Below, one piece after another: positions 2,083 to 24,751 of a stretch of 32,000 bases of DNA (the stretch's first letter is position 1; each line of letters begins with the position of its first letter). A program made the position numbers and the translations under genes. The notes beneath the pieces are model-generated. The model did no database searches and had not been told where the DNA came from. It saw only the letters and a program-made list of their open reading frames with translations. Origin of the DNA: Haloquadratum walsbyi C23 (lineage in GTDB: Archaea > Halobacteriota > Halobacteria > Halobacteriales > Haloferacaceae). The stretch spans positions 240,001 through 272,000 of the forward strand of contig NC_017459.1 in NCBI RefSeq assembly GCF_000237865.1. The letters run 5' to 3'.

Positions 2083-3390
2083 GAAGTCCACCGCACCCAT
2101 CAAGCGAACATCCGCAACCACAGTCAGGTTGCAGAGTCACTTGACCGTCACGGGTGGAGTGCCAGTAAACTCTGGAACGTCGCTAACTACCACTCCCGCG
2201 AAGTCTGGGAAGAGACGGGCGATATTCCTGATCATGAGGAGTTAAAAGCCGGGTTGAAGACTCATCCAACCTACAAGGGACTGCACTCACAGTCCAGTCA
2301 GCGGGTTCTGGAGGAACTCGCTGAAGGCTTCAACTCGTGGTACGGCTCCGAAGACGACAGGGACAACCCACCGGGCTACCGCAAACAAAACTACTACGAC
2401 GACGAGGGTCGTCGTGTCCACGAAGAACACCCACGCAGTACGGTGACGTGGAAGCAAAACGGATTCAAACACGACCCCGAAAACAACCGTGTCCGCCTCT
2501 CTAAGGGCGCGAATCACAAAGAGCATCCGAAAGCGTGGGAGTACATCCTTGTCGAATACGAAACCCGCCCCGGCATCACGGTCGAGAACATACAGCAGGT
2601 CAGATCCGTCTACGATCAGCACAAAGAGCGATGGGAACTCCATCTCGTCTGCAAAAACGAGATTGAGACACCCGACGCTCCCGGCACCGAGACGGCGGGT
2701 ATCGACCTTGGTATCAGCAACTTTGCCGCTGTCGCCTACAGCACCGAAGACGCTGACCTGTACCCCGGGAACCGCCTGAAACAAGACGGCTACTACTTTC
2801 CGAAAGAGATTGCTACGTGCGACGACGCGGGTGGTAACCGAGCTACCAACTTACAGAAGAAGTGGTCAGAACGACGCACTCACTTTTTCCACAGCCTTGC
2901 GAAACATATCGTTGAACGCTGCGTTGAGAACGGTGTTGGTCGCATCAACATCGGTGATTTGGAGGGTGTTCGAGAGGATGAAGACGGTAGCTCGAAAAAC
3001 TGGGGCAAACATGGCAATCTTGACTTACATGGATGGGCGTTCGACCGATTCACCAGTATCCTCGAATACAAGGCGAAGGGTGAGGGAATCAAGATCGTGG
3101 AAGTGGATGAGCATGATACGAGCAAAGCGTGTTGTGTCTGCGGTCGGACAGACGAGAATCAACGTGTTGAACGCGGGCTGTACGTCTGTGAGTCGTGCGA
3201 TGCAGCGTTCAACGCTGATGTGAATGGGGCGGAGAACATCCGTTTCGAGTTGAACCAAAGTAACTCCGAGTCTGCACCTGATTTGGGTGGAGATAGGAGT
3301 ACCGGCTGGTTGGCACAGCCAGCAGTCTATCTTCATGACTTGTCCCACGGATTCTCACCGCGGGAACAAGTGGTAGACTGCAAACCCTAA
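2077..3390 (+). CDS. tnpB: TnpB (IS1341-type OrfB), RuvC-like RNA-guided endonuclease family
   Basis: Haloarchaeal TnpB N-terminus (SASKLWNVANYHSRE). RuvC-I motif AGIDLGISNFAAVA. Zinc ribbon CCVCG...CESCD. RuvC-III motif FNADVNGAENI. The ATG at 2077 lies inside the duplicated target. The TTG at 2050 used in the track would overlap the transposase gene and the right inverted repeat. Confidence 0.9.
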   Translation: MLEVHRTHQANIRNHSQVAESLDRHGWSASKLWNVANYHSREVWEETGDIPDHEELKAGLKTHPTYKGLHSQSSQRVLEELAEGFNSWYGSEDDRDNPPGYRKQNYYDDEGRRVHEEHPRSTVTWKQNGFKHDPENNRVRLSKGANHKEHPKAWEYILVEYETRPGITVENIQQVRSVYDQHKERWELHLVCKNEIETPDAPGTETAGIDLGISNFAAVAYSTEDADLYPGNRLKQDGYYFPKEIATCDDAGGNRATNLQKKWSERRTHFFHSLAKHIVERCVENGVGRINIGDLEGVREDEDGSSKNWGKHGNLDLHGWAFDRFTSILEYKAKGEGIKIVEVDEHDTSKACCVCGRTDENQRVERGLYVCESCDAAFNADVNGAENIRFELNQSNSESAPDLGGDRSTGWLAQPAVYLHDLSHGFSPREQVVDCKP

Positions 3391-6385: not shown

Positions 6386-7200
6386 TATTGACTTCCTCCA
6401 CACGACTGAACTCGTGGGATTCCTCCGTGGGTAATCCAACCAGTCGATTACCCCGGCTGTGAACTTGCGGGTTCGCTGACGCTGGGTTGGTCAAATGAAC
6501 GCGACTGTTCCCCAAATTCGGCGGGTATCCAGTCGTGCTCATTCCACTTCCAGTACGCCCCATTAGAGGGTGCGTCCCTGTTGCGTTCAACACACAGGGC
6601 AGCAGGCCGAGCCATCGACCCAACTTCAGACTGCATGATGTTCCACGCCCCTGCCACGTCACTGTGACCCTTTGATTCACACTCATGACAGCTAAACGAA
6701 TCGCCAGTCCGAGTCACATCGTTACTCCCGCACTTCGGACACTCACTACTCGAATCAGCTTCGCTCACTTCTTCAACAGCAATCCCAACATCACCGAGTG
6801 TCAGTTCTATCCGCTCCAGTAGTTGCCGATGCGACCAGAAGGCGTAGTTCTTTTCGTTCACGTCAGCACTCCAATGCGTGTCTAACACATTGATAAGCTC
6901 ACCAACGTACACGGTGTCAATGTTCCGTTCGAGCAGCCACTCTGTGGCGTGTTTTACTGCCGCATTGCGGCTGTGATCTCGTATTCGTGACCGCTCTTCG
7001 TACAGGCATTGGATACGGCAGCTCGTGTACTTGTCATCTGGGAGCTCCGATTGGAGTGTAGCGATTCGCTCAGAATAGCTCAGGAACCGCTCAAACTCTG
7101 GACGAGCGTGATACACCGCCGTCTCACCATGTTCAGTGACGACAGCCAACGTGTTGTTTGCACCTACGTCGATGGCAACTGTCTGCGTCGTGTTAGATGA
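6386..7200 (-). mobile_element. 5'-truncated IS1341-type element remnant (right end retained, left end and first third of tnpB missing)
   Basis: On the minus strand the right-end module GGAGGAAGTCAA corresponds to 6388-6399. The tnpB reading frame is closed by an in-frame TGA just upstream of the RuvC-I motif. An unrelated gene ends at 7282, leaving no room for the missing part. Confidence 0.7.
6448..7197 (-). pseudogene. tnpB: Truncated tnpB (C-terminal RuvC plus zinc-ribbon part only)
   Basis: The translation reads SSNTTQTVAIDVGANNTLAVVTEHGE... (RuvC-I) ...ECPKCG...CHECE (zinc ribbon) ...HSDVAGAWNI (RuvC-III). There is no N-terminal WED/REC-like region, and a stop codon lies directly upstream at 7201-7203. 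Confidence 0.75.
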
Positions 7201-8717: not shown

Positions 8718-9626
8718 TCAGAGCGTGTCCGGGTCTGCTCCATCGGCGACAGCCGCAGTTGGTTCAGCGTATCCCTCACGATACGTCGGATATGAAAACG
8801 TATAATCAAGTTCATGCAGATAATCGTTTGAACATCGCTTACTCGTTCGGACGCGCCGTTGTGCTGTCTCAGAGAGGTTTGATTTCGCAAGTCGCTCCGA
8901 AACAGTCTGTTTGGGTGGGTCAGGGCGACCACATGCCGTTGCAATCCAATCAGCGAATGTCCATTTATGAGCCGGCTCATCATCGACGGCAAGGACACAT
9001 TCCTCACGAGCGACGTCTGCAGTAAGTACGTGATTAATGACACCGGCTGCATCATCGCGATGGATCATATTGAGATATCCCTCAGTTACCGGTCCTGAAA
9101 GATATCGCGTCAATCGATATCGATTTGGACCGTATAATCCAGCAAATCGAGCGACAGTTCCATCGATTCCGACATCCCCTGTTTCCTCGAGTGCGATTGA
9201 TTCTGCTGTTTTGAGAACTTGTGTTTTCTCAGTTGTTGGATCAAGCGATGTTGATTCATCAACAAATTCACCATTATGATCACCATATACACCGGTTGAG
9301 GATGTGTATATGAGTCGATCTGTCGACTCGCGTTCAGCGTATGTAGCAATTGCATTTCGAAGCCCATCAACGTAGATTCGTCGGGCTGACTCAGCACCTC
9401 GACCACCGGAACTGGCGGCGAATATGATCCATTTAGCATCTGGGAGTGTCGAAAGCGTCTCCGGATGGGTTACATCAGCCTGCTGGGCATGAAATCCTGC
9501 TGCCTCAATCGAATTCAGCCCACTTTCTGAGCGTCGAACACCAGTCACCGTGTGCCCGGCTGCCTGAAGTTGTGTGCCAAGTTCAATACCGACGTATCCG
9601 CAACCAATAATAACGGCATGAGCCAT
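8718..9626 (-). CDS. NAD(P)-dependent epimerase/dehydratase-like SDR family protein
   Basis: N-terminal Rossmann motif VIIGCGYVGIELG, and YTSSTGVYGD typical of extended SDRs. Its ATG overlaps the stop of the upstream gene by 1 nt (TAATG at 9624-9628). Confidence 0.8.
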   Translation of the reverse strand: MAHAVIIGCGYVGIELGTQLQAAGHTVTGVRRSESGLNSIEAAGFHAQQADVTHPETLSTLPDAKWIIFAASSGGRGAESARRIYVDGLRNAIATYAERESTDRLIYTSSTGVYGDHNGEFVDESTSLDPTTEKTQVLKTAESIALEETGDVGIDGTVARFAGLYGPNRYRLTRYLSGPVTEGYLNMIHRDDAAGVINHVLTADVAREECVLAVDDEPAHKWTFADWIATACGRPDPPKQTVSERLAKSNLSETAQRRVRTSKRCSNDYLHELDYTFSYPTYREGYAEPTAAVADGADPDTL

Positions 9627-10078
9627 TACTGATCATTACGTTCAGCAAGGAACTGCTGAATCGCTGCAAGTTGTGCAAGCGTCATTGCCGCTCGACCCTC
9701 GAGTGCCTGTTGCACTTCTTGACCAGAGAGATCAAGATCAACATTTGACGCAATAATATCAACATCAACAACGGTTGTGGTCATTGACATCAGTAGATGA
9801 TCACGAAGCTCAAAAATGACTGACTCCGCATCAGGACGAGTCTGATGAACCGCAAGGATTGCTGCTGCATCTTCAGTCCGGAGATCTGGGATTACTGGCG
9901 TGTCTGTATCGGGATCGATATTCGAAAGCGTCTCAATTGTCTTTGCATCAACGTCTGTCTCTTCGGTGACAGTATCAACCCCAACATCGGTGATGACATC
10001 ATGAAGTTGCTGTTCATACGCTGCACAAAGTGCATCAGGTGTCAGTGAACCAGGATTATCTGCTGCATCATAGAGCAT
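9626..10078 (-). CDS. Small acidic hypothetical protein, translationally coupled to the SDR gene
   Basis: The ORF has an ATG at 10078 (the track uses the TTG at 10090). It has acidic composition and a 1-nt stop/start overlap with the downstream gene. Confidence 0.65.
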   Translation of the reverse strand: MLYDAADNPGSLTPDALCAAYEQQLHDVITDVGVDTVTEETDVDAKTIETLSNIDPDTDTPVIPDLRTEDAAAILAVHQTRPDAESVIFELRDHLLMSMTTTVVDVDIIASNVDLDLSGQEVQQALEGRAAMTLAQLAAIQQFLAERNDQ

Positions 10079-10248
10079 ATCGCCTGTCAATACCGCGGCG
10101 ATAAAACAGTTGTTGACATATCGATGCGACCTCCTACCATATGGTCGATATAATGGAGTCCGATAGAAATATCACATAAGATAATGTCAAGATATAAATT
10201 CAGATTAACTCAAAGATTCCTATATACTATATTATCACGGGTAATAAC

Positions 10249-13200
10249 TCACTCAGGTGGGCAGTATCCGGTCGGGGTTGTGCATTGTGCGTCAGCGCCT
10301 GCCCCTGTCCACCCAACAGAACGCTCATCCATATTTCCATCAACATCTCCAACACCGAATGGACCAGATGGGACGACCACAACCGTGGCGGTTCGAACGG
10401 TAAAATCAATCCGTTCATTCCGCCCGAGTGTTTCTGTGGTTCCATCGCCGTCTATATCGAGCGACACTGCTGACCCATCACGAACATACTGCATTGACCC
10501 GGATGCAGTGCCAACGGCAAACCGCCCATATGCGCCGCGAATATCGACTATCCAGAGGTTGACCGTTGCAACCCATGGATTGAATGTCGGGAGTATCGGA
10601 AGTCCGGCAGGAATTGTTGTCACTGTTCCTTTTGTTGCCCGTGTTACAGCACGTTCGGTTGCATTCGCCGCCGCCCCAGAGGCGACTGATTGAGCACCCT
10701 GTTTGAGTGATGACATTGTGTCATCGACTGCTGGCTTAGGGACTTGAACTGACTTACTGGTTGCTACTTTTCGAAGGTCAACTCGTAATGCGGTCTCAAC
10801 CCGATCATACTCATGCTCATGTCCATATGTATATGCTTCGCTTCCCCGGCTGAGTGCTTTCGTTGAGATAGCTTTGGCAAGCGACCCATTCGCAGCGGCT
10901 AATGCGACCGAACCACCATCCCACATTGCAATCGAATCATCAATCGCTGCTGTCCGCGCTGCATTCGAGAGATCTGTTTCCGATTTGAGTGTATGGTCAG
11001 CTTGTTGTTCAACATCTTCCATTGAGTCATTAATTGCTGCTGCGAGTGTATTGCGCCGGGTGCGTAAGGTTGTATCCGGGGCAACGGCAAGACGAGTATC
11101 CGCTGCAATCAGCGCTTGTCCAGCTGTTTGGAGTGAAACACGCCCTCCAGAGCCGAAGACCTGGGATACAATTGTATCGGCTGTATCAGCATATGGAATG
11201 GCAAACACATTCTGATTGCGTGCTGCAAGCGGGATGTATGACGTCTCATCACTAACACCATCGACAAGTGTTGCATTAACAGGGCTCACTCCAAGGTATG
11301 CGGGATCACCGTCAGGGATGATAGTCAGCGGAGCAGAAACACCATTGGCAGTGCCAAGTGTTCGACGGGGTGGCGTGGTCATCGGAGTCAACCCTGCAAG
11401 TTTGTTTATATGAGATGCAGATATCCCTGGCAGATCAAGTCTCTCCGTTATTCCATTGTTTTGTTGCGTTGTCTGCTCTGATTGCTCTTCGAGTTGGGCA
11501 ATGACAGCGTCAATATACGCCCCTCTCATTGCGACTCGAACACGGTCGGCAACGCCATCATATCGCCGTGGTGGGTCAATCAGAGAATATCGCCGACGGT
11601 GGAGTATGTCTGTAAGCTGTTCTGCAGCGTTTGCTTGTCCTGTTGCGATATCATCACCGCTGACCGTCACCGAGATGGTTCGAACCTGCTCACGGAGAGA
11701 ACTCACATCCTCATATATCCATGTTGAAAGTGATTCCGGTCGTTGACCCCTGACAGTCCGGGTTGCAGTCACATCACCATTTACTGCCGCTCGTCGTGCG
11801 ATATCGTCATAGCCACCATTATTTTTTATTAGTCGTTGTGCTGCATCCGTCGTTTCAACGAGATTCGGACCGTCAATTGCCCCACCGGGTTCAAAACTGG
11901 GGGAAATCCCACGCGTCGGAACCGCGAGTGGTACAACTCTCCCTGTAAGGTGTATCTGCACATGCGAGCGCTGACGCCACGAGTCCGTTGTTGTCCGAGG
12001 AGATTTCTCTGGTGCATGCCATGTCCATTGCACTGTTGAGTCAACTGTTACTGAGCGTGCAGCGATATTGATCGTTTGTCGCCCAATTCCATCACTAAAT
12101 CGAGGGCTCACCCATGTTGGAGAGGCAGGCGTCACAGTCACTTTGCGTGATACATCTGTCTCAGCAAGCGTCCAGTTTGCTCCTGGCGGGGTAGGTGTTG
12201 TCGGACGCCCACGCCACTGTATATCGACATCAGTTGTGAGTTGAGCCCATGCCGTATAGCCGGTCTGACTGATCTGTTTATATGATGCTGTGGTATCCCC
12301 TTCTCGGATAACTGCAAGAAATGCCTCATCAGCCGTGCCGTTCACCCCGACTGTAATCGTCCGCTCTGCTGAGGGGACTGGATCGGGATATTTTGACTTC
12401 GTTTCGCGCACGCGCAACCGTTCAGGGGCGTTTGGTCCTGGGATTGCACCGGTAACCACAGCGGAAACACGCGGTGGTGTCAATGGGGTAAGAACATCAT
12501 TCATCCCTGTATTGAGTGTTGCTATTCGGAGTCCTGCAGCAGCATCGGGGTCACTCCGTCCAAAAACCGCTCGCTGTGAGTCAACAAGACCAGCATTCGT
12601 TGAAAGTGTCACATGTGAATTCGATAAAACATTTTCAATTGGTGCACCAGCATACTGTCCCAGCCCACGAGCCTGTGTGACTGCATTTAACCCGATTGTT
12701 GTCCGTCGAGCAAGACCTGGACCCCCAAGCGCATCAGCATCAAGTCGACGCTGAAATTTCACTGTTTGATCATGAAGCGCAAGAACGGGAACCGCAACCG
12801 TCATGCTTCGATTAATAACGCGAGTATTGACAACGCGGTTATCACGCATGACTGTCAACTGTATTCCTCGAACCGTCGTGCGGAGCTCAGTCCCATCATC
12901 AACACCTACAACGGAGACGTGTGTAAGCAACGGTTCAATATCACTATACTGTGGGAGTGTAACACGTGCGGCACTTCGACCACGCTGATGCTCAATATTC
13001 ATCAATGCCTCACGCGTTTGAAGATAGATTCTCAACTCAAGCGCTCGACGAAATGTGGCAGTCGTCCCAAGCGCACGTCCAACAGCGCTCTCAGTGGGGA
13101 TAGTAACAGGCTCTCGGGCTGCAGCATGGGCTGCACGACGGATCGCACCACGAAGGGCAGCAGTTGTCTCAGCGTCGACACGGTCGGCAACCGCATCAGC

Positions 13201-13332
13201 TGTCCGGTCAACTGGTGCTGCCCCAGGTGTCGCAAGTGAAAACGTAATCATTGAACTCCCAACAAGCAAGAGCACACCAACCAGCGCGAATGGAACACGA
13301 GCACGATCATCAGACCCGATTGAGCGACCCAT
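10249..13332 (-). CDS. 1027-aa protein with an N-terminal hydrophobic helix (pilin-like anchor), last gene of the pilus-like operon; function unknown
   Basis: The long ORF starts MGRSIGSDDRARVPFALVGVLLLVGSSMITF. Its ATG overlaps the upstream stop (TAATG at 13330-13334). No second TM segment is obvious. Confidence 0.85.
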   Translation of the reverse strand: MGRSIGSDDRARVPFALVGVLLLVGSSMITFSLATPGAAPVDRTADAVADRVDAETTAALRGAIRRAAHAAAREPVTIPTESAVGRALGTTATFRRALELRIYLQTREALMNIEHQRGRSAARVTLPQYSDIEPLLTHVSVVGVDDGTELRTTVRGIQLTVMRDNRVVNTRVINRSMTVAVPVLALHDQTVKFQRRLDADALGGPGLARRTTIGLNAVTQARGLGQYAGAPIENVLSNSHVTLSTNAGLVDSQRAVFGRSDPDAAAGLRIATLNTGMNDVLTPLTPPRVSAVVTGAIPGPNAPERLRVRETKSKYPDPVPSAERTITVGVNGTADEAFLAVIREGDTTASYKQISQTGYTAWAQLTTDVDIQWRGRPTTPTPPGANWTLAETDVSRKVTVTPASPTWVSPRFSDGIGRQTINIAARSVTVDSTVQWTWHAPEKSPRTTTDSWRQRSHVQIHLTGRVVPLAVPTRGISPSFEPGGAIDGPNLVETTDAAQRLIKNNGGYDDIARRAAVNGDVTATRTVRGQRPESLSTWIYEDVSSLREQVRTISVTVSGDDIATGQANAAEQLTDILHRRRYSLIDPPRRYDGVADRVRVAMRGAYIDAVIAQLEEQSEQTTQQNNGITERLDLPGISASHINKLAGLTPMTTPPRRTLGTANGVSAPLTIIPDGDPAYLGVSPVNATLVDGVSDETSYIPLAARNQNVFAIPYADTADTIVSQVFGSGGRVSLQTAGQALIAADTRLAVAPDTTLRTRRNTLAAAINDSMEDVEQQADHTLKSETDLSNAARTAAIDDSIAMWDGGSVALAAANGSLAKAISTKALSRGSEAYTYGHEHEYDRVETALRVDLRKVATSKSVQVPKPAVDDTMSSLKQGAQSVASGAAANATERAVTRATKGTVTTIPAGLPILPTFNPWVATVNLWIVDIRGAYGRFAVGTASGSMQYVRDGSAVSLDIDGDGTTETLGRNERIDFTVRTATVVVVPSGPFGVGDVDGNMDERSVGWTGAGADAQCTTPTGYCPPE

Positions 13333-14183
13333 TATGATCTACCGCCATGATCCCATGTTCGAATGACAATCTCGACCGTCGACACCGATACCGCCTCAGT
13401 TGCCACTGCTGGTGTTTCATATCGATCTCGAAGATCACTCGTGATTTCTGGGGCAAGTGCCGCTGTCAATCGTTCATTTGCCTCAGAGGTATCCTCTATT
13501 GCCAGTGGCTCAGCAAGCGATGCATTGGTCAATGACTGCAATTGAGCGTAGCGATGCCGAGTGAGAGTTATCTCTGGTTCATCATCACGCATCATGACCC
13601 GTGCTGGTCCTGGTGGAATAACAACAGCAATAATACGCGCAGCAACAGCAGTTCCAAGAGTTTGAAACTGGTCATGGGTATCGATTGCGAGTGGCTCAAC
13701 GCCGACGGGGATGCTTACAGTCGCGGTATGCACATCATCAGACAGTGGTCGTGGACCAACACTGAAGTGAGCAAATAAAGGCGACCCTGGATATGGTATC
13801 CAACGAGCATCAACACGGACACGCCCACCTGTTCGAGCGCGGACAGCGTTGCGAACCCGAAGGCGAAACATATCATCTATCCGTGTGATTTGTGCTTTTT
13901 GTGTTCGAGTTCCGCTGATTGTCGCATGTGTAATAAGTCCGGCAAGTGTCCCATGAGTCCGACGAGTGAGGTGATGACGGTCAGGAGAGATTGCTTGATC
14001 AGCGAGATTATTGACTTCTAACCGTGGTGAGTGTTCAACAGTTGTGGTGGTGGTTGTGAGTGTATTAGCAACGGTATCAGCACGGTCAATCCGTGTTGGT
14101 GGTGATTGATCGACGGTAAGAACGCCTGCAATCGCAGCCGTAATGAGTATAATACAAACAAGTGCATCAACGGCTGCATTCAT
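13332..14183 (-). CDS. 283-aa protein with an N-terminal hydrophobic helix (pilin-like), unknown family
   Basis: I prefer the start MNAAVDALVCIILITAAIAGVL because its ATG forms an ATGA overlap with the upstream stop (14180-14183). The mature part is Arg-rich. Confidence 0.75.
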   Translation of the reverse strand: MNAAVDALVCIILITAAIAGVLTVDQSPPTRIDRADTVANTLTTTTTTVEHSPRLEVNNLADQAISPDRHHLTRRTHGTLAGLITHATISGTRTQKAQITRIDDMFRLRVRNAVRARTGGRVRVDARWIPYPGSPLFAHFSVGPRPLSDDVHTATVSIPVGVEPLAIDTHDQFQTLGTAVAARIIAVVIPPGPARVMMRDDEPEITLTRHRYAQLQSLTNASLAEPLAIEDTSEANERLTAALAPEITSDLRDRYETPAVATEAVSVSTVEIVIRTWDHGGRS

Positions 14184-14662
14184 TGCCACACTCGAACAAT
14201 AATAATACCCCAATCAACACCACTGTCAACGGCAACACCAACCGAGCGGGTGACACTGTCAGTGTGAGCATTGTCTACCGGTGGGTGTGGTCCATACTGC
14301 CATTCATCAGAGTCAGTATAAATTGAAATATTCGCTTGATATCCCCGAGGAACAGACATCGATGCTGACGTAGGAGCGACAGTCACGTTGGTTGGGTCAA
14401 GCACACCACCGGGTGCGTGAATATCGATAATTCGATCTGCAGTCGGTCCGGCGAGTTCACGATCAGATGATGACTGAAAGATGTCTGTTAGTGTCGTTGC
14501 ATACAGTGATACGCCCACGCAAACAGCGAATAATGCAATTAGTGCAACAATTGGTGGTGTTTGTGCGCGACACTCAATAGAATCAGGATTAACATCAAGA
14601 CTAAAATCACGATTAGCCATCCAGGTATCTGGTAATATTGACAATGGTGTCCAAGAGCGCAT
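14180..14662 (-). CDS. 160-aa protein with a class III-like signal/hydrophobic helix (pilin-like), unknown family
   Basis: The ATG at 14662 lies 1 nt after the upstream stop (TAA-T-ATG). The sequence ...ECRAQTPPIVALIALFAVCVGV resembles the R-A/G-Q prepilin cleavage context. The track start at 14728 would overlap the upstream gene by 65 nt. Confidence 0.7.
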   Translation of the reverse strand: MRSWTPLSILPDTWMANRDFSLDVNPDSIECRAQTPPIVALIALFAVCVGVSLYATTLTDIFQSSSDRELAGPTADRIIDIHAPGGVLDPTNVTVAPTSASMSVPRGYQANISIYTDSDEWQYGPHPPVDNAHTDSVTRSVGVAVDSGVDWGIIIVRVWQ

Positions 14663-14663
14663 A

Positions 14664-15188
14664 TTACACCCCCACGAGGACAACATCTTCGTCATTCCAT
14701 GAGACACGTCGAATGACAACAGGACCATCGACAGGACGCCATGTTACATTCATTCCATTCGCTTGGGCAGTTGTGACTGCATCAAGAAATGCAGCTTCTG
14801 AGTCAAAGACGTATGTTGGTGGTGAGCCATACAGAATATCACGAAGGCGGTTATCATGTGAGTTATTCGATTCAGAAAAGACGGGCGTGACTGGACCAAA
14901 TGCAAGCGTTGCATGGGCAGTTCCAGCATCTGATTTTAGTCCAATACGATATGTTCCAAGGCGAATTGCATCTGCAGTAAGCGGGTGTTCGGCTGTTGCA
15001 GGATACTCTGCTGCCCCAACGCGGTCAATCGTCGTTGCAACAGCCGCTGCATCTGGTGGCTTTGTTGTTGGAAGACCACTAACAGCACCAATCAGCGTAA
15101 TACCCGCAATGGAAAGACCAATCCAAGCATACCACGCATCAACAGGAATATTGAACATGCTGTGAATGGTTTCGGTGTCATATATCAA
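14664..15188 (-). CDS. About 165-174-aa protein with an N-terminal hydrophobic helix (pilin-like), unknown family
   Basis: Hydrophobic segment DAWYAWIGLSIAGITLIGAV. The start is either the TTG at 15188, preceded by a GAGGTG Shine-Dalgarno-like motif, or the ATG at 15158 (MFNIPV). Confidence 0.7.
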   Translation of the reverse strand: MIYDTETIHSMFNIPVDAWYAWIGLSIAGITLIGAVSGLPTTKPPDAAAVATTIDRVGAAEYPATAEHPLTADAIRLGTYRIGLKSDAGTAHATLAFGPVTPVFSESNNSHDNRLRDILYGSPPTYVFDSEAAFLDAVTTAQANGMNVTWRPVDGPVVIRRVSWNDEDVVLVGV

Positions 15189-15319
15189 CCTACACCTCAG
15201 AATATAGCGATATTACCGAGTGAAATAGCCTGTACTACTATAACCAGTCGAATTGCTGATTGTCTCTATGTGAAGTATATCATCAATAATACTGTAACAT
15301 ATCAGTATGTTCGAATTGG

Positions 15320-17155
15320 CTAAAATACTGCTATTGCACCGATATATGCAGTAAAATACGTCGCTGTTCCTGACAGAAGCGCAAGTCCGACACGATATCC
15401 GACAAGCGAGCGTTCAAGCCCTTGTTCTAGTCCTGTGGCAAGAATGGTAAGGATAGCTGCTAAAAGAAGAATATAAATACCGACAGCAATCCCAAGTATC
15501 TCTGGTGGAATTGCTGTTGCACCGCTGACGGTGGACCCAACAGTCGGAGGCTGTGAAGATGGTCCAAGAGCCGGTCCTGTTGTTGCACTCATCGAATCGG
15601 TTGAACCGCTTGCCTCAGCCATTTTTGTTGCCATTGAAACTGTTGCCCCACCCACAAGCGGTCCAAACAGTGCTGCTGTGTGGCTGAGTGTTCCAGTAAT
15701 ACTCGCGAGTTCACGTCGTGCGGCTGACTCTGTTTGTTGAACTGTTCGAAGATGATCGGCGAGTGTCTGAAGCGTCTCACCAGCAGGTCGCCCTTCTCGT
15801 GCTGCAACCCCGATGAGCACTGCTGTTGCACGTGCTCTATCACTGGGAACATCTGAAAGCGCGCCGTATGGACCCAAGAATGCTTGCTGGATATCGACAC
15901 GAAGGCGATGTTGAACACCGGCAGCTGTTTTGAAGACAGTGCTTGTCTCACCAATCGTTGCATCCGCAGCAGCGGTCAGTGATGTTTCGACTGCCTCACC
16001 TGCTCCAACACGTCGCCCGATAACAGCGGTTGCGTCTGCGAGTCCCGATTCAATATCTGCAACTTGCTTTCGAACCGCCGCAGCAGGGTGATATTGAACG
16101 GTAAGCCCAGCACCGACTCCGATTCCACAAGCAGCGATTGGACCACCCCATGGGACGACTGTCGAGCCGATACCCCATCCAATAAGGGCACCAGCTGATA
16201 CAGCAACAATACCACGGACACTGCCGGCTGGAAGCGCAGGATGTGAGCGTGGGATCTGTGTTGGGGCAAACGCAACCGGGCGCTGAAGCAGTATCCACCC
16301 GCTTGCAGTCAACAACCCGATAGGAAGCAGAAAATCATAGAATAAAACGAATGCACCCGTTGGGATGGAAACACCACCAGCCCGGGCGGCTGGAAGAACC
16401 CCAACAAGTGCAAGTGGAAGCAACACCCCAAACGCGTAGAGACCACTCGCCGGTCCACGGACTGTCCCCGCAAACCCAGCCGTTGTTGAGCGGATCCCGG
16501 AGAGGACGGCATCAATTCCACTCTCAATCGCGTCAGTACGATCTTCAGGCGGGGTATCGACTGCTGCCCGAAGTAAAGTGAGTGACCGCTCAAGTGGGCG
16601 AAACCAGGGTTTCCACTCCGAAGCAAAACGCATCAGTCCGGCTGTTGGACCCATGTTTGTCTGATCAACATGTGCCTGCAGACTTTCTGCAAGCGGTCCT
16701 GTTCCAGTCCGCGCAGCGAATGCAGATGCACGCTCTGGTGGACCATCAAGTTGGAGTCGAAGACCAATCCGACCAACAAGCCCTGGTGTAGCCCCAAGTG
16801 CCCGAGTGCGACGCAGCGTTGCAAGTGCAATTGGAAGTGTCTGAGTGAGATATGTCACGCCAACTCCAATGGCACCCGATAGCAATAATACAACACACAG
16901 CGCTCTGAGAGAAAGAGAAGTGCCAATCAGAGCTATCCCTCCGATCAAGCATACGGAAGTAAGTATCCCAACAGGGACGGCAAGCACGTATCCAGCGGCG
17001 ATGATCGTCTCTGGACGGATAGATACATTTAGAAATGCGAGCGCTCGAACGAACTCAGGTGTCGCTGAGACATCTCCTGGATACTGATTGGCGAGTATTC
17101 TTGTGAGCTTCTTGATTCGACTTGCAGTATTATCGAGAATGAGTTCTCGTCGCAT
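15320..17155 (-). CDS. Polytopic membrane platform protein, TadC/PilC/FlaJ-like (type II secretion system F-like)
   Basis: 611 aa with many hydrophobic segments separated by soluble helical regions. It lies immediately downstream of the secretion ATPase and is coupled to it by a 1-nt overlap (TAATG at 17153-17157). The family call rests on position and topology, not on a specific motif. Confidence 0.75.
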   Translation of the reverse strand: MRRELILDNTASRIKKLTRILANQYPGDVSATPEFVRALAFLNVSIRPETIIAAGYVLAVPVGILTSVCLIGGIALIGTSLSLRALCVVLLLSGAIGVGVTYLTQTLPIALATLRRTRALGATPGLVGRIGLRLQLDGPPERASAFAARTGTGPLAESLQAHVDQTNMGPTAGLMRFASEWKPWFRPLERSLTLLRAAVDTPPEDRTDAIESGIDAVLSGIRSTTAGFAGTVRGPASGLYAFGVLLPLALVGVLPAARAGGVSIPTGAFVLFYDFLLPIGLLTASGWILLQRPVAFAPTQIPRSHPALPAGSVRGIVAVSAGALIGWGIGSTVVPWGGPIAACGIGVGAGLTVQYHPAAAVRKQVADIESGLADATAVIGRRVGAGEAVETSLTAAADATIGETSTVFKTAAGVQHRLRVDIQQAFLGPYGALSDVPSDRARATAVLIGVAAREGRPAGETLQTLADHLRTVQQTESAARRELASITGTLSHTAALFGPLVGGATVSMATKMAEASGSTDSMSATTGPALGPSSQPPTVGSTVSGATAIPPEILGIAVGIYILLLAAILTILATGLEQGLERSLVGYRVGLALLSGTATYFTAYIGAIAVF

Positions 17156-19239
17156 TATTCACCTAGATTTTGGGGATTTGTTGTATCCCACGAGACAGCA
17201 CCTTGTTTTGGATTGACTAACTCAATCTCAGCGCGGCGTTCAAGTGTCTCATGACGGTCAGCAAGTGCGGTTCGAAAATCAGCGTATGAATCTGTTGTCC
17301 CTCGACAGAGACGCTCAATAATACGGCTATCTCCACGTTCGATCACGCCGGTTGAGGTAAGTTTCCCATCAATTCGGGTGAATAATGAGACAAACTGAAT
17401 ATCGTCAGTTGTTTTTCCGGTTCTGACCTCCTCAACATGAGATACAAATCGGTCATCACCACGACGAGTACAGGTTACAATGAGGTCTGTTGCACTGAAT
17501 GCAGAGGCTGGTACTCCAAGATCCGAAACGACCCGTTCACGGACAGCGACGCCGGAATCACCATGGATTGTTCCAAGGACAGCATGACTGTGTGCACCAA
17601 CGCGCATCGCCTCATACAGTGCTGCCGCCTCCTCACCACGAACTTCCCCAATCGCCAGTGCGCCATTCCCAAGTCGAAGTGCTGTTCGAAGTGCGGTAGT
17701 CGGCGTAAATGTGGCTCCAGTAATTCCAGTTGTGTCTGTCTCAGTATACAATGGTTGTATATCACGACCATGCTCACGTAATGCTTCAACAGGAAGTTCA
17801 GGTGTATCTTCGACGCTCACAAGACGGGTTGTATGTGGAAGTTCCCACAGGAGCGCCCCGAGTAATGTTGTTTTGCCAGCACCGCGGGTTCCTGCAACAA
17901 TCGTTGCTGCACCACGAGCAGTTACGACAGACAGAAATGCGGCTGCAGCGGGGGTGAGTGACCCGACAGTGAGCAATCGAGTGAGTGTCCATGGCGTCGT
18001 ATCACGAGCGCGAAATGCAAATCCAAGCCCGTCACTCGCTGGTGCTGTAATACCTGCAATACGGATTTGTCGACCAGTCTCAGCAGTGACAGTCGCATCT
18101 AGTGTGGGTGTACTTCGAGAGAATGCACGACCACTTTCACGACGAAATCGCGAGGCAAGCGTGGCTGCACCGGATGGTCGCAAACGGATATTCGTCGCCA
18201 TGCGCTCGTCATCAAGGACAATTCGAATCGGTGTTTTACTGACTGGTGATGACGCAATCACATCGGAAATACGATCATCTGCAAAGAGATGTTCAATCAC
18301 CCCAAGTCCCTGGGTATGACGAGTCAGAATCGCCGTCAACGTTTCAACAGGATCCTCATCAGTGGCGACATACCGGACAGCACGACTTGGTGCCCGAGAG
18401 CCATCTCCACCACCGCCATCGACTGACCCTGTTCCAAGACATTCATACGCCATTGCTAGTGTGTCAATTGCGGTTGAATCGAGATTATGAAATGCCGGGT
18501 CAAGATGATAGTACTGTTTTGCTTCAGTATTGCTATCGACATTCGTATCGGTGGAATACATCCGAGCTGTTGCGTCAGTCGAGAGGTCTGTAACATCGAG
18601 AAGTGTTGCATCCGGTGGTGGAGAGCGTTCAAGATGTGATCGAGACAGCGTCGGGGCGACAAATGGACTGAGTGCTGTCTCAACTGCAGTCTCTGTAAGT
18701 GAATCAAAGCCTGTGTCGGTAGCGATATCCCCAACGGGACCGGCTCGACCTGTTGCGTGGTATGCGGCTTTTCCAGGATCCTCTCGAGCGCGAGTGGCTA
18801 TCTCTGGGTCATGAAACCGGACACGCTCGATAAACCGCCCAATCGCTTGAAGCGTGGCTGCAGCGTCATCTGCGTATGTTCGCTCAATTCCATCGGATAT
18901 CGTTCGAATAATAGCGACGTTATTGTGTGTGAGTGCGTCAATGACAGTCTCTCGACAGGCAGATGCGGATGCAAGGTCACCACTACCTGGACAGTCCGTT
19001 GCATCAACAACAAGTTCACTTCGATCAGGTACCCCAGTTCCAGTTGGTGTTTCAACGGCAACACAACAGCGACATCGGGACTCTTTATCCGAGTTTGCAT
19101 TATCAGACAGTGCATTCATCTCGATTGTTGACGCTGAAACAACAGACGATAGATATTCACAGACTGATGATGGCAGTATCCGTCTGAGATATGCGTTGAT
19201 ACCAGTCATACTCGCAGTATCAATAGATAGGATCGACAC
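17155..19239 (-). CDS. Type II/IV secretion-system ATPase (PilB/TadA/FlaI/VirB11 superfamily) with a long N-terminal extension
   Basis: Walker A GTRGAGKTT, Asp box VSVEDTPEL, Walker B ALAIGEVRGEE and His box LGTIHG. About 450 residues precede Walker A. The exact start is uncertain (Met at residues 1, 11 and 41). Confidence 0.9.
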   Translation of the reverse strand: MSILSIDTASMTGINAYLRRILPSSVCEYLSSVVSASTIEMNALSDNANSDKESRCRCCVAVETPTGTGVPDRSELVVDATDCPGSGDLASASACRETVIDALTHNNVAIIRTISDGIERTYADDAAATLQAIGRFIERVRFHDPEIATRAREDPGKAAYHATGRAGPVGDIATDTGFDSLTETAVETALSPFVAPTLSRSHLERSPPPDATLLDVTDLSTDATARMYSTDTNVDSNTEAKQYYHLDPAFHNLDSTAIDTLAMAYECLGTGSVDGGGGDGSRAPSRAVRYVATDEDPVETLTAILTRHTQGLGVIEHLFADDRISDVIASSPVSKTPIRIVLDDERMATNIRLRPSGAATLASRFRRESGRAFSRSTPTLDATVTAETGRQIRIAGITAPASDGLGFAFRARDTTPWTLTRLLTVGSLTPAAAAFLSVVTARGAATIVAGTRGAGKTTLLGALLWELPHTTRLVSVEDTPELPVEALREHGRDIQPLYTETDTTGITGATFTPTTALRTALRLGNGALAIGEVRGEEAAALYEAMRVGAHSHAVLGTIHGDSGVAVRERVVSDLGVPASAFSATDLIVTCTRRGDDRFVSHVEEVRTGKTTDDIQFVSLFTRIDGKLTSTGVIERGDSRIIERLCRGTTDSYADFRTALADRHETLERRAEIELVNPKQGAVSWDTTNPQNLGE

Positions 19240-19323
19240 AGACTGCGTGGTGACGGGATATTACTTGAGCATCAGGCTGTGCTCGTCTATGTGTGAATAT
19301 GATTCCGAGTGATAATGAGAATG

Positions 19324-19797
19324 TTACCCGCGTGTGATGACAATCACCGTACGTGATCGCTCACGGACGAATGAGAGAATAATATTATGAGAACCCGCTG
19401 ATTGAAAAACGACAGGTCCTTGTGGTGTTCGAACCGGGACAGGAAGTGAGATCACGCGACGAGGAACCGATGTCTTCGCCGACGTCGCTGAGAGAGCGTA
19501 TGTAACTACAGGTTGGTTTCCAACAGTATTCGGAGAGCCACCGATAGCCACAAATTCGGTTTCTGGTGCAGTCAATGATTGTATAGGAATTGTAATATCA
19601 ACATGCCGTGTTGCTGCATACAATCGCGACCGCGTTGCATCCTCATTCATGACTAATTCGCGACCGGCGCGCTCAATTCGGTCAGCAGCAGCGTCATATT
19701 CAGTCGCCGTCCGCGTTTGTGTTGCATCTGTAATTGCGGGGATTGCAATCGCCATCGTTGCAAGGAGTAACACAGCCGCAATGACCAGTCGGATCAC
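19324..19797 (-). CDS. 157-aa protein with an N-terminal hydrophobic helix (pilin-like), unknown family
   Basis: The GTG start gives MIRLVIAAVLLLATMAIAIPAI. It forms a GTGA overlap with the stop of the upstream gene (19794-19797). Confidence 0.7.
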   Translation of the reverse strand: MIRLVIAAVLLLATMAIAIPAITDATQTRTATEYDAAADRIERAGRELVMNEDATRSRLYAATRHVDITIPIQSLTAPETEFVAIGGSPNTVGNQPVVTYALSATSAKTSVPRRVISLPVPVRTPQGPVVFQSAGSHNIILSFVRERSRTVIVITRG

Positions 19798-20657
19798 TCA
19801 AATGCTGCACGAAGGCGAGCCGCTAATGATGTTTCATCCGAGTCATCAGTGTGATTCTCCGCTGTGTCCTCTTGATCGGATGTATTATGATTCCGGTGAG
19901 ACCGTGATTCACTCTCAGCATTGTTTTGATCTCTTGTCGGCGTGTCTCGCTCTGCAGTTGATCTCGGTACTGATTGCTGTTTCACCGCATCATGCGCTTT
20001 CGGGCGATGTGTTGCCATCCCTTCACAGGTCGCACATGTCGATATGTCGTGTGTCGCGGTTTGGTTTGGATTAACTCCCGATGAACGGTCGCTTGAGGGT
20101 GCTTGATTCTTGTATTGTTGGTTTAGCTGTGTTGTCTCCGATTCTGTTGTTATGTCTTGAGTTCCGTCCTCTTCAAGCCGTGATTCGACTGCTTCAATTT
20201 TCGCAAGCGCAATGTTCGCTCGTTGTTCGACGGCTTCATCAACTGCACTCACACTCTCAATAAGTCCGCGGATAGCCGCCAGTTCACCGGTAATCGCGTT
20301 GAGACGTGATTCAATCCCTCCGACTCGATTCATAATCTCTGGACCTGTCTTTGTTTTTGTCTTTGTCTCTGTCTCTATCGGTGTTTCCTCGCCTGATACT
20401 GATGATGACATGTCGCTGTTCGTATGTGCAGGGTGCGATGTCTCCTCAGTAATCGTTGAATCCGGATTTGAACTTTCAGGGTCGATTGTATCGGACATGT
20501 CGATAGCCTGGAGATCTGGCACTGATGAGAGATTCACACCACTATTGTGATCCGATGATACCTCAGTCGAATCGATTGTATCGGTTACTGTCGATTCACT
20601 GACAGCGCGTTCGACAGCATCAAGACGGGCAGCAAGCGCATCATCTGCGGAGTCCAT
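19794..20657 (-). CDS. 287-aa highly acidic protein with coiled-coil segments, first gene of the pilus-like operon
   Basis: ATG start. Helical heptad-like stretches (IESRLNAITGELAAIRGLIESVSAVDEAVEQRANIALAKIEAVESRLEE). LAARL motifs occur at both termini. No TM segment. Confidence 0.75.
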   Translation of the reverse strand: MDSADDALAARLDAVERAVSESTVTDTIDSTEVSSDHNSGVNLSSVPDLQAIDMSDTIDPESSNPDSTITEETSHPAHTNSDMSSSVSGEETPIETETKTKTKTGPEIMNRVGGIESRLNAITGELAAIRGLIESVSAVDEAVEQRANIALAKIEAVESRLEEDGTQDITTESETTQLNQQYKNQAPSSDRSSGVNPNQTATHDISTCATCEGMATHRPKAHDAVKQQSVPRSTAERDTPTRDQNNAESESRSHRNHNTSDQEDTAENHTDDSDETSLAARLRAAFE

Positions 20658-20680
20658 GCACGTCAGTGCTAACCTTCTCG

Positions 20681-20688
20681 AATATGTA
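20681..20688 (-). promoter_or_regulatory. Candidate TATA box for the pilus-like operon (leaderless-type spacing)
   Basis: On the minus strand, TACATATT lies 24-31 nt upstream of the ATG at 20657. Confidence 0.25.
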
Positions 20689-21073
20689 TCTCCGGGTCGA
20701 CAAAATCAGCTGAGAGTTCTGCGTGTGATCATACATGAGTGAATACCAGTGTATACTCCGCTCTATCGCCTGATCCAAATCACGGATACAAAATCGAATA
20801 CTCAATCCTGATAATTGGGTTATATCGGTATTGTGATATCTTGATCTCCCCTTATGATTATTCTATTTTATTGTCGAGTTCAAGATTTATTTTTATATTA
20901 ATTACAGATTCAACCAATTTTGATATCCAACCCCGAACAGAGGATTTATACTACTGATTCGGATTTTAGATTCTACTCAGACACGCAGATAGTGGCGCTG
21001 TCTTTAGATGGCGCACTGGGTGCACCGGGAGCACGTACTTAAAACCCGAAGATAGTCACAACTAAGCCTATAA

Positions 21074-24000
21074 ATGTCAAATCATAACTACGGACGCGCG
21101 GTTGTACTGTTCATTATCCTCTGTCTTGTTGTAGGAAATTGGTATGTAATTGGCAGCGGTTCAGCCTCAACAACAAATCAAAGCAGTATCACGCTTGATA
21201 GAAATCTCTACTATGAAAATGATAATATCCGTGTCACGCTTGATGATGCTAATTTGTCGACGGATACGAATTATATTGTAAATATCGGGTCTGATACTGA
21301 AAACCCCATACTTAGAGAAGAAGCTTTACCATCGAGTGTCAGTGTTTACACGACTAATCATCCAGTTTCGAATAGGAACAACGATGCCGTGCTGAACCAG
21401 AGTGATTTTGATTATCAATATACTGGATTTGCATCAAATTCCATTGAATCTGTCCAAGTAAACCTAGATAATACCGTTACAATATCGTTTACTGGGGAGA
21501 CAAGCGGTTTTGATGATATAACATATGACCAAGGAGAAACTGTTACTCTATCACACGCTGGCGACACAACGTTCACCGGGACAATTGATGTTAGTCAGAC
21601 AGATGCGCTCGGAACACTCAACGCAGGAGATGGGGATGCGATCACTGTCCGGTATTACGATGTGAATGCACAGGAACACCGAACAGATAACGCGTCATTT
21701 AGCGCGGAACTCTCACCAACAGCAACCCCAACTCTGACACCCACACAAACACCGACTCCAACTCCGACACCGACGCCGACACCAACACCGACGCCGACAC
21801 CAACACCGACGCCGACACCAACACCGACGCCAACACCAACTCCGACACCGACGCCAACACCAACTCCGACGCCGACACCAACACCGACGCCAACACCAAC
21901 TCCGATTCCGACTCCGATTCCGACTCCGACGCCAACTCCGACACCGACTCCGACACCAACTCCGACACCGACGCCAACCCCAACTCCGACTCCAACGCCA
22001 ACACCAACCCCGACACCGACACCGTCTCCAGCGACATCGACTAGTGACAGCGGAGGGGGTGATAACACCGATACCGATGATGACTCGGCGGGAGATTCAA
22101 CAAGTGAGGGTACAGCGACACCTACTCCGGAGACACCGCGAGCATCAACGTCGCGTCTTGAGGCTGGAGTCGCAACCGGGATTCATGCGGATAACACCAC
22201 TCAGGTTCAGAGTGACGTTGAGAGTATTATTGAACTGCCGATGAACGCACCAATCGTGAGTGCTCGCAGTGATAACCCGATTGTGCTTGGTGCTGACCTT
22301 GTTGTTCGCATCAATGAAGAAAATGTCACAGAGACGTTTCGTCTCCTGCAAAACGGGGCAGAAACCGGACAGATACTGCTTACAACATCAGCGCGGTTGA
22401 ACCCAACAGATGAGCTTTTGGTTGACCTTGCTGCAGTGCAGAATACAACAACTGATGAGACAATCGATGCGAGTGAACATACCGTTCGTTTGATCGAGCA
22501 GGTTGCTTTTATGCGGAATGCGCGGACGGAAATAATCGAATCAACCAACTCACATCCAGTGGCTGTACTCACGGGAACAGTTGGATCAGATGACGTCACA
22601 CAGATAATCACTGTCATTGGAGAGGACGGAGTCACACTCGAGAAAATTCAAACGGGGGCAGGAAGCCAATTTGCCGTGTTTAACCCGAGTAATCACGAAC
22701 TCGGAGAATATACACTCAAATCTAATCAAGGAGGTGAGACGACTCTTAATCTTAAATCACTGGAACTCACTGCGACAGTCGATGAAACAACGGCTATACT
22801 CACACAGGGACTGAGTGGACGTGTCACCGCCGCTGTTAATACATCACGAGATATCACACTCGCGCTTACTGATGAAACTGAAACAACTGTTATGAACACA
22901 ACCGCAGAGATTCGTCCAGATGGGATTGGGTCATTTATATTTGAACCTGCATCATTGTCCACTCTCACACCGGGAGCGTACACAGTCGTCGGAACGGATA
23001 TCGAAACCGGGGTGCAGACACAAAGCGATATAGTAAATCTTCAGAGAAATACAAACGCGACTGCAACATTCACACGGTCGATACATACTGGCACGCGCGG
23101 TGGCACCGTCTCAATCCCAATTCGGGTTGGTGTAAATCAGACAGCCACAGTGAGAATCAGAAAGAGTAGTGATACTAATGCTGACAATAGCGATAATGAG
23201 TATGCACATTCGACTGCAGTCATTCATGATCGAAACGGGGATGGCATCATTACACCCCGAATCAACACATACGCTGCGAATCAACAAGCGCTTGATGATG
23301 ACACCGCTGGGTCGGTGTTTATCATTGGGGATGAAACTGAGACACGAGCGAGAACGGGGGATGGGAACATATCCGAATCAAATATTGATACCGATATTAT
23401 CCTGAGTGAGGATATAGGATACGATACCGCAGATGCGACTGAGACAGCCGTGGAGTCGGAATTGATATTGTCGTCTGGACAACACAAACTCACAGTCTGG
23501 AATTACACTCATGGAATGAGACATCCAAATGATACCGCGACACTACAACTGAATCCACCGACAATCGAACGATTTCGATCGTACACTGCTCCTGCCGGGA
23601 CACAGACGAGGACACTCACAGGATTGAATACTATAACTGAGACAAATCAATCAATATCGAGTGAAATCGTTGCTCAGGGTGATACTATTATATATGAACT
23701 CATTGCTAGTGGACTGAGCGGGCGTCTTGAGAGTGCTGAAACATCACCGGCGCAAGCATTTCGTGCGCTGGTGAGTGACCCTGATGATTCATATCGAGTT
23801 AGTATTGCGATGCGAACGGATGCAAAAACGAATCTGGAGAACTCATCAATCAACATTCAATCGAGTGAAGACATATGGGTAGTTACCGACAGTGCGAATG
23901 ATACCTATTATCTTGGAATGAGGGTCCCATCTGATATCGATCAAAAGCCCCTCTCGATGGGGAATACAACAGAATCAAATTCAACTATTGAATCAGACTA

Positions 24001-24751
24001 TCCTCAAAAGGAACTACTCACGACAGTCTCCCTACATAATTACCTGACAGAATCAAATTCAACAACAAAGCAAATACTCACAAACGTTCTTCCAGGGCAC
24101 GTACAGATTGACTCTGGACTCTCTGTTCTGCCGGCACCACAGCAGTCGATTACCGGAACAACGACCGTTGCACCGGGAACACAAATATCGATTCACCTTC
24201 GCTCCAATAATTCACAATCTGCGTTCAATCAAACGGTCACTGCGACTGTTGGGAGTACTCGTACCTGGGAGATGCTCATCAACGCTTCTTCGATGACACC
24301 TGATACGTCATTTACCCTCCAATCGATTGATACACGCTCGGGGGTCGAAACGATCGAAGGCTACGCTATCGGATATGTTCGAACGGATGCGCAGTCAAGA
24401 GAAACGCCGAATGAAACCACCGCCGATACAAAGAGCAGCACGGGTGGCGGTGGTGGTGGACGAATTGCCAGTGTGATATCCAGATTATTTGGTGATGATG
24501 TTGATGATGGGCGAGGACAGGGGCAATCTGAAGAGAAAACCCCGTCTCAATCAGAAACAGAGCGTACAACAGAAGAGACGACTCTGGGGAATCCACAGGC
24601 TGTCGTCGGCAATCTCGCAGACGCTGTCCTTGGAACGGTCGTTGAAAATGTTGTTAGGTCATCATTGCTTGGTCGACTGTCGCGTCCCGCTGCAATTGCT
24701 GTTGGAGCCCTCCTAACAATCGCTGTAGCATTCCTCTATCGACGGCATTAG
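21074..24751 (+). CDS. 1225-aa secreted, C-terminally anchored cell-surface protein with a long Pro-Thr linker
   Basis: N-terminal signal/anchor [20 protein letters not shown] (PT)n region of about 106 codons. Many N-x-S/T sequons. A Gly run followed by a C-terminal [22 protein letters not shown], with no PGF motif. Confidence 0.85.
21713..22030 (+). repeat. Coding tandem repeat (period 6 nt, higher-order about 18 nt) encoding (Pro-Thr)n
   Basis: ccgaca/ccgacg/ccaaca/ccaact units are repeated throughout. The minus-strand ORFs at 21655-22068 and 21699-22037 are by-products of this repeat. Confidence 0.9.

Follow-up and report, generated by a model that had tools for sequence, protein, structure and literature searches.

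The 32,000-nucleotide (nt) stretch of the Haloquadratum walsbyi C23 genome analyzed here (NC_017459.1, positions 240,001 to 272,000; hereafter the window, in whose numbering all coordinates are given) carries on its minus strand, at 10249 to 20657, an eight-gene cluster encoding a PilB/PilC-type secretion ATPase, its platform protein, and six accessory proteins. We identify this locus as the Haloquadratum-lineage copy of the subclade 4F (PilB2/PilC2) system, and we regard the assignment as secure. The 4F cluster is already known: it was described in 2016, and there is a Pfam family for every protein that it encodes. A preliminary description, made from the DNA letters, had recognized a PilB/PilC, Tad-like locus distinct from the archaellum, in which six of the eight proteins had no recognizable family. 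The first part stands, as shown below by the FlaI score of the ATPase, whereas the second does not, because each of the six accessory proteins passes the gathering score of a Pfam DUF family.

Makarova, Koonin and Albers (2016; PMC4858521) defined 4F as a Halobacteria-centered, type IV pilus-like subclade, the ATPases of which often have an extra N-terminal cysteine-rich domain and the unique halobacterial component of which is an intracellular coiled-coil protein, arCOG07564. In Table S4 of that paper, the gene order in Haloarcula hispanica is arCOG07564 (aspartate-rich), arCOG10216 (a predicted pilin, proposed to be the major one), arCOG01818 (ATPase), arCOG01814 (TadC, with nine transmembrane segments), arCOG04673, arCOG05166, arCOG06291, arCOG02945 (a surface protein of ~1000 amino acids [aa]), arCOG04674, and arCOG03095 (WcaG epimerase), and arCOG06291 and the arCOG05166 family are flagged there as FlaFind-positive. 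The window genes equal this set in number, order, sizes, and signal flags. Besides, the window has both downstream neighbors, an arCOG04674-type DUF5791 gene and a WcaG epimerase gene, as well as the coiled-coil protein at the head of the locus and the four-cysteine N-terminal domain of the ATPase, and its relatives carry the published linkage to cetZ2 (46 of 80 loci). Brown and Duggin (2023; PMC9856176) treated the same cluster, recognizable by cetZ2, arCOG04674, and arCOG03095, as the pilB2/pilC2 regulon of Haloferax volcanii, and a preprint by Sivabalasarma and Albers (2026; bioRxiv 10.64898/2026.04.22.720090) includes subsystem 4F and calls arCOG02945 "adhesin-like." Hence, of the supposition that both the function and the architecture were uncharacterized, only the former part survives: no experimental function was found in the literature searched, whereas the architecture has been catalogued as 4F.

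The eight open reading frames (ORFs) lie where the preliminary description had placed them, in a window of ~0.45 to 0.55 G+C, a value in keeping with a Haloquadratum-like organism. The first gene (19794 to 20657) encodes a 287-aa DUF7310 protein (Pfam score of 47.4 bits, above the gathering score of 40), which is, as proposed earlier, an acidic coiled-coil protein, with a pI of 4.41 and without a predicted hydrophobic segment, and is predicted to be cytoplasmic; it corresponds by position to arCOG07564 and is longer than the ~170-aa protein of the Haloarcula system. It is followed by the gene for a leaderless, strongly basic DUF7311 protein (19324 to 19797, 157 aa, 126 bits; by position arCOG10216). 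The genes for the PilB2-type secretion ATPase of the VirB11/T2SSE family (17155 to 19239, start uncertain) and for the PilC/TadC-type platform protein (15320 to 17155, 611 aa; by position arCOG01814 TadC) come next. The remaining four genes encode proteins of the families DUF7283 (14664 to 15158, 164 aa, 181.7 bits; by position arCOG04673), DUF7285 (14180 to 14662, 160 aa, 100.9 bits; by position arCOG05166), DUF7284 (13332 to 14183, 283 aa, 263 bits; by position arCOG06291), and DUF7286 (10249 to 13332, 1027 aa, 1098 bits; by position the "surface protein" arCOG02945). The DUF7311, DUF7283, DUF7285, DUF7284, and DUF7286 proteins each have one N-terminal hydrophobic helix, as had been noted. 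NCBIfam holds no family for any of the accessory proteins, a literature search by DUF numbers and presumed HVO locus tags found nothing, and an exact-sequence contig look-up with the DUF7284 protein gave no match. Profile-profile comparison of the five anchored families detected no significant paralogy (best pair DUF7283/DUF7284, probability 35%), and a common origin of these families by duplication can therefore not be demonstrated from sequence.

All eight genes had been thought to be chained by overlaps. The five overlaps named at that time are exact, namely GTGA (19794 to 19797), TAATG (17153 to 17157), TAA-T-ATG (14660 to 14666), ATGA (14180 to 14183), and TAATG (13330 to 13334), but two of the seven junctions are gaps, which also distinguishes this copy from the 4F system as described. 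The gap between the DUF7311 gene and pilB is at least 84 nt and would reach ~205 nt if pilB begins at ATG 19119. Three start codons are candidates for pilB (GTG 19239, ATG 19209, and ATG 19119); because the first 50 residues of the ORF are unconserved in relatives, the start may be ATG 19209 or ATG 19119. The gap between pilC and the DUF7283 gene is 131 to 161 nt. Since the DUF7283 orthologues start with M-F-D/N, ATG 15158 is favored, which gives a product of 164 aa rather than the ~174 aa assumed earlier and leaves an AT-rich gap of 161 nt (15159 to 15319) that may contain an internal promoter. Upstream of the DUF7310 gene, a divergent, AT-rich intergenic region of 416 nt (20658 to 21073) is presumed to hold the operon promoter. 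Scanning the window for Rfam families and tRNA genes yielded no matches.

The eight genes are real and under purifying selection. Compared with the closest genome found, the metagenome-assembled genome of Haloquadratum walsbyi J07HQW1 (locus L001), all eight showed ratios of nonsynonymous to synonymous substitution rates (dN/dS) of 0.13 to 0.40, at amino acid identities of 60 to 87%.

We further surveyed synteny using one genome per species, with a DUF7283 alignment as the anchor followed by profile hidden Markov models, and obtained 80 loci spanning Haloferacaceae, Haloarculaceae-type genera (Natronomonas and Halorientalis), Halarchaeum, and others. The DUF7283, DUF7285, DUF7284, and DUF7286 genes were present in all 80 loci in constant order. 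The upstream half was judged in the 67 loci with enough 5' sequence, where pilB and pilC were found in 63, DUF7310 in 61, and DUF7311 in 60. Downstream, DUF5791 occurred in 57 and the epimerase in 55 of the 80 loci, and a cetZ2-like gene stood directly upstream in divergent orientation in 46; the latter neighbor is absent from the window, from L001, and from Natrialbales. The survey, which the preliminary description had asked for, thus indicates an ordinary conserved cluster. Five loci of Haloglomus and unclassified Halobacteriales (L045, L051, L060, L069, and L073) have the genes from DUF7283 through DUF7285, DUF7284, DUF7286, and DUF5791 to the epimerase, but no pilB, pilC, DUF7310, or DUF7311 was found in the up to 9 kb of 5' sequence available there. 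This detached half, together with the 161-nt AT-rich gap, suggests that the 4F cluster consists of two separable modules, possibly with an internal promoter.

The ATPase matched Pfam T2SSE at 67.6 bits and has all four of the motifs quoted for it previously: Walker A (GTRGAGKTT), Asp box (VSVEDTPEL), Walker B (ALAIGEVRGEE), and His box (LGTIHG). Against NCBIfam, it scored 106 bits for the TadA-type family TIGR03819 (cut-off of 373) and 79.6 bits for FlaI NF058587 (cut-off of 550). Both scores fall below threshold, and the ATPase is therefore not an archaellum motor, nor is it an equivalog of the bacterial Tad enzyme. The closest solved ATPases were Archaeoglobus GspE (afGspE, 2OAP) and CpaF, followed by FlaI, and these match only residues ~292 to 622, leaving an N-terminal extension of ~290 aa without a solved homologue. 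In this extension, four cysteines (C56, C58, C83, and C95, arranged as C-x-C...C...C within ORF residues 52 to 100) were kept in 97% of 66 aligned PilB2 sequences and form a candidate metal-binding or disulfide module.

The platform protein of the window, PilC, scored 16.5 bits against T2SSF, under the gathering score of 25.2, and 12 of 19 orthologues matched this family, with a best E value of 2.3e-7; a PDB sequence-profile search gave nothing meaningful. At least six strongly hydrophobic segments are predicted, in agreement with the polytopic nature ascribed to the 611-aa protein, and its gene overlaps pilB.

All five anchored proteins had been considered to lack a pilin signature. This proved incorrect for the DUF7285 and DUF7286 proteins and, in many relatives, for three of the five. 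The N terminus of the DUF7285 protein carries a prepilin-type (class III) signal that is predicted to be cut at R32-A33|Q34, and a hydrophobic helix follows (...I-E-C-R-A|Q-T-P-P-I-V-A-L-I-A-L-F). The motif [KR][GA]Q..P was found in 74 of 78 orthologues, with R32, Q34, and P37 invariant, and on this pattern we assign the leader to the archaellin/pilin-type class III. The N terminus of the DUF7286 protein is class III-like (D-D-R10-A11|R12-V-P-F-A-L-V-G-V-L-L-L-V), and its consensus, M-x-x-(L)-A-D-D-x-R-[AG]|R-[VI]-P-F-A-L-V-G-V-L-L-L-V, includes R[GA]R.PF in 72 of 80 orthologues; the proline at position +3 is like that of PilA-type pilins, and the arginine at +1 is unusual.

The DUF7284 protein in the window is leaderless (M-N-A-A-V-D-A-L-V-C...), and its start codon is fixed by the ATGA overlap. 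About 32 of 71 relatives have a class III leader of 3 to 6 residues (M-R-[GA]|[VI]-S-T-V-L-D), which occurs in Haloarculaceae-type genomes (L022, L032, L034, L039, L058, and L065); in Haloferacaceae (L002 to L021, Haloferax loci), as in the window, the start codon abuts the hydrophobic segment. This distribution marks a lineage-specific loss of the prepilin leader in Haloferacaceae, such that the primary product starts near the position of the processed N terminus in leader-bearing relatives. The other two proteins have no such leader. DUF7311 opens directly with the hydrophobic helix (M-I-R-L-V-I-A...) and is leaderless in 44 of 45 orthologues ([MV]-[IL]-R-[VL]-V...), and DUF7283, with the membrane anchor MFNIPVDAWYAWIGL... 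and the orthologue N terminus M-F-D-V-P-V-D-A-W-Y-x-W-L-G, is leaderless in every lineage. A search of the five N-terminal segments for Pilin_N (DUF1628) gave no match even at E values up to 10. Besides, in accordance with the earlier statement that the window has no archaellin, Fla set, or prepilin peptidase, no archaellin, Fla/Arl accessory gene, A24 peptidase, or Flp-like match was found among the window ORFs scanned.

Structure models were made for the DUF7283 and DUF7286 proteins; for DUF7311, the homologue search returned 12 sequences, too few for a reliable model. The AlphaFold2 (AF2) model of DUF7283, built with 88 sequences, had a predicted local distance difference test score (pLDDT) of 87.6, with residues 31 to 164 mostly >90. 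After an unmodeled, low-confidence anchor and a Pro-rich linker that is invariant, it folds into a compact alpha/beta domain. Foldseek found no match for this model in the PDB (best E value of 0.43, template-modeling [TM] score of at most 0.2). The AF2 model of DUF7286 (40 sequences) was moderately confident (pLDDT of 76.7, predicted TM score of 0.53) and consists of a low-confidence anchor followed by a large mixed alpha/beta ectodomain with helices and long beta-hairpins, in which helix 17-30 is split from helix 43-73. Foldseek searches against the PDB and BFVD gave nothing significant for this model (best E value of 2e-3, TM score of at most 0.1), and PDB sequence-profile searches with DUF7286 and DUF7285 gave nothing meaningful. 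The typical pilin layout, in which an unbroken N-terminal helix packs against a beta head, is absent from both models. We also rejected the labels "TolC" and "adhesin-like," since the Foldseek matches (TolC, levivirus maturation proteins, and RPA) were at chance level, with TM scores of at most 0.2.

The charge of the ectodomains is a further conserved feature. That several of the presumed extracellular proteins are not acidic was confirmed: the pI is 10.3 for DUF7311 (median of 11.2 in 40 orthologues), 6.2 for DUF7284, and 6.3 for DUF7286 (orthologue median of 7.5). DUF7283 and DUF7285 are acidic, and three secreted proteins encoded nearby have pI values of 4.05 to 4.3. For a salt-in archaeon, such conserved non-acidic ectodomains are uncommon; they may be buried in a permanent assembly or may bind the acidic S-layer, glycans, or nucleic acid.

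Taking these properties together, we consider it moderately probable that PilB and PilC assemble subunits processed by PibD into an envelope structure resembling a pilus. A hexameric ATPase of the VirB11/PilB family, with its N-terminal four-cysteine domain, would act on the polytopic PilC/TadC platform, and the acidic coiled-coil DUF7310 protein may be a cytoplasmic regulator or adaptor. PibD, encoded elsewhere, would trim the class III precursors of DUF7285 and DUF7286, and in many other lineages that of DUF7284 too, after which the motor would draw the trimmed subunits out of the membrane and build from them a short structure, similar to a pilus or pseudopilus, on which the large DUF7286 ectodomain would be borne or displayed. 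DUF7311 and DUF7283, which are leaderless, would remain membrane-anchored as accessory or scaffold subunits. It is also conceivable that the structure has an adhesive function.

Several points weigh against this model or the identification beneath it. The placement in 4F comes from gene order, sizes, and hallmarks rather than from an ATPase phylogeny, and the equivalence between Pfam DUF families and arCOGs likewise comes from gene order and size rather than from alignment with arCOG members. No experiment on a 4F system was found in the literature searched. In H. volcanii, archaella are reported to be the sole visible appendages after deletion of pilB3 (PMC13286277, PMC7305310), which implies that PilB2/C2 makes no obvious pili in the laboratory. 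Besides, no clear major pilin was identified in the window, DUF7311, the published candidate for that role, has no [KR][GA] cleavage site, the DUF7283 model has no continuous N-terminal pilin helix, and the module from DUF7283 to DUF7286 persists in some genomes without adjacent pilB and pilC.

The main rival reading, which we consider rather unlikely, replaces the adhesive surface pilus by a pseudo-periplasmic complex that is embedded in the envelope and linked to the CetZ2 cytoskeleton and to surface glycan chemistry. PilB/PilC would then build only a short piston or anchor, with most of the five anchored proteins serving as parts of a stator or scaffold, like ArlF/ArlG or the assembly platform of a type II secretion system (T2SS). 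This reading is consistent with the lack of leaders in DUF7311 and DUF7283 in all lineages and in DUF7284 in Haloferacaceae, with a DUF7283 model that is not pilin-like, and with a mixed alpha/beta DUF7286 model that has no adhesin or immunoglobulin-like match. The non-acidic, often basic ectodomains of DUF7311, DUF7284, and DUF7286, unlike those of the secreted neighbors, fit it as well, as do the linkage to cetZ2 (46/80), DUF5791 (57/80), and the epimerase (55/80), the five loci with a downstream module lacking pilB and pilC, and the failure to see PilB3-independent pili in H. volcanii. However, the conserved class III signals argue that DUF7285 and DUF7286 are handled like pilins, the missing visible pili may only mean that the system is not expressed in the laboratory, and the cetZ2 linkage is absent in the window and in Natrialbales. 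We hold with equal reserve the reading of 4F as a hybrid envelope machine rather than a conventional adhesive pilus. In it, no more than two or three of the five anchored proteins would be prepilin-type and the rest permanent anchors, working with CetZ2, DUF5791, and the epimerase; this machine may combine a fold unseen in solved structures, in DUF7283 at least, with several non-acidic ectodomains and may have a role in cell-surface architecture.

Type IV-like pili have been reported to aid natural transformation in some methanogens, and a DNA-handling (competence-type) pseudopilus can be imagined here, whose strongly basic DUF7311 subunit, together with DUF7286 and DUF7284, both neutral to basic, would bind nucleic acid on the outside of the cell. 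The pI of DUF7311 (10.3, median of 11.2) and the median of 7.5 for DUF7286, in a lineage whose secreted proteins have a pI of ~4, speak for this, but charge by itself is a weak argument, the lineage is not established as naturally competent, and no DNA-binding domain, nuclease, ComEC-like channel, or DprA occurs in the window or the conserved neighborhood; we judge it very improbable. Least credible of all, and in our opinion to be rejected, is the view of the locus as a motor related to the archaellum (FlaI/FlaJ) or as a decayed, functionless remnant. FlaI does count among the relatives of the ATPase that can be detected, and the window copy has lost its cetZ2 neighbor and has two enlarged intergenic gaps, but the FlaI equivalog score is far below threshold (79.6 bits against 550), neither archaellin nor a Fla/Arl accessory gene was found among the window ORFs scanned, and the eight ORFs are intact and constrained, with dN/dS of 0.13 to 0.40 against a relative that is 13 to 40% diverged. 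Assembly of PibD-processed subunits by PilB/PilC into a pilus-like envelope structure remains the reading that we prefer.

Downstream of the DUF7286 gene, the minus strand continues with the genes for the DUF5791 protein (9626 to 10090, 154 aa, very acidic, 142.9 bits; by position arCOG04674, a predicted helix-turn-helix regulator) and for an NAD-dependent sugar epimerase/dehydratase (8718 to 9626, Pfam Epimerase and NAD_binding_10; by position arCOG03095, WcaG), the start of which overlaps the DUF5791 stop. Within the neighborhood, DUF5791 is under the strongest constraint (dN/dS of 0.05 against L001), and its product has a pI of 4.05. One JGI metagenome protein (P0162, 1156 aa) joins DUF7286 and DUF5791 in a single ORF, which may be a genuine fusion or may have arisen artificially by misassembly or a frameshift; if real, it would mean that the regulator-like DUF5791 is physically tied to the DUF7286 surface protein.

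On the other side of the locus, the window copy, unlike the published 4F clusters, has no adjoining cetZ2. At the divergent position where 46 of 80 relatives have a cetZ2-like gene lies a plus-strand gene (21074 to 24751) for a 1225-aa secreted protein without a Pfam match, with a Pro-Thr repeat array (21728 to 22029, ~17 copies of 18/24-nt units) and a C-terminal hydrophobic anchor. Two further plus-strand genes (24994 to 27462 and 29345 to 30973) encode very acidic surface proteins with a pI of 4.05, one of which has a PGF-CTERM archaeosortase signal and the other CARDB, NEW3, and DUF11 domains and a C-terminal anchor. Mobile elements lie within a few kilobases of the conserved cluster: an IS66-family transposase gene (615 to 2066, plus strand) followed directly by an IS605 OrfB/TnpB gene with a Cas12f-like TNB domain (2050 to 3390, plus strand), and a second, truncated TnpB gene (6448 to 7149, minus strand). 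As for the published idea that the regulon itself is a mobile element, we found no DUF7286 homologue on PLSDB plasmids and no DUF7283 relative in IMG/VR viral contigs.

The operon is, then, an ordinary member of a known system and not a discovery. Its remaining biological interest is that 4F (PilB2/C2) has been conserved in 80 or more haloarchaeal species and is genetically linked to CetZ2, with no reported phenotype, filament, or substrate. The class III subunits, the leader loss in DUF7284, the non-acidic ectodomains, the DUF7283 and DUF7286 models, and the detachable downstream module offer handles for work in Haloferax volcanii.

Among related systems, subclade 4C, represented by PilB1-C1 of H. 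volcanii (HVO_0620/0619) and by pil-2 of Halobacterium salinarum, resembles the window locus in being a haloarchaea-restricted PilB/PilC operon with co-transcribed predicted prepilins and with an ATPase and TadC of clade 4 ("crenarchaeal") type. It differs in its accessory set, with a length of 6.9 kb and seven ORFs, and with no coiled-coil or ~1000-aa protein described, and an adhesion phenotype has been measured for pilB1-C1 (PMC6491452), whereas none has been reported for 4F. The clade 2 system PilB3-C3/PilA1-6 of H. volcanii shares the general plan of a PilB ATPase, a PilC platform, and, as predicted for 4F, PibD-processed N termini of the form R-[GA]|x-S/V-P; unlike in the window, its PilA pilins are encoded in trans, have the DUF1628/Pilin_N domain, and form visible pili. 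The bacterial T2SS and Tad systems are more distant: no pseudopilin sequence or fold similarity was detected in the window proteins, and the window has a single platform gene, no Flp-type pilin, and no secretin. Nevertheless, CpaF is among the closest solved ATPases, and the four anchored proteins of rising size encoded 3' of the ATPase and platform genes, with a very large one last, may be the counterpart of the GspH-I-J-K tip sets of those bacterial systems.

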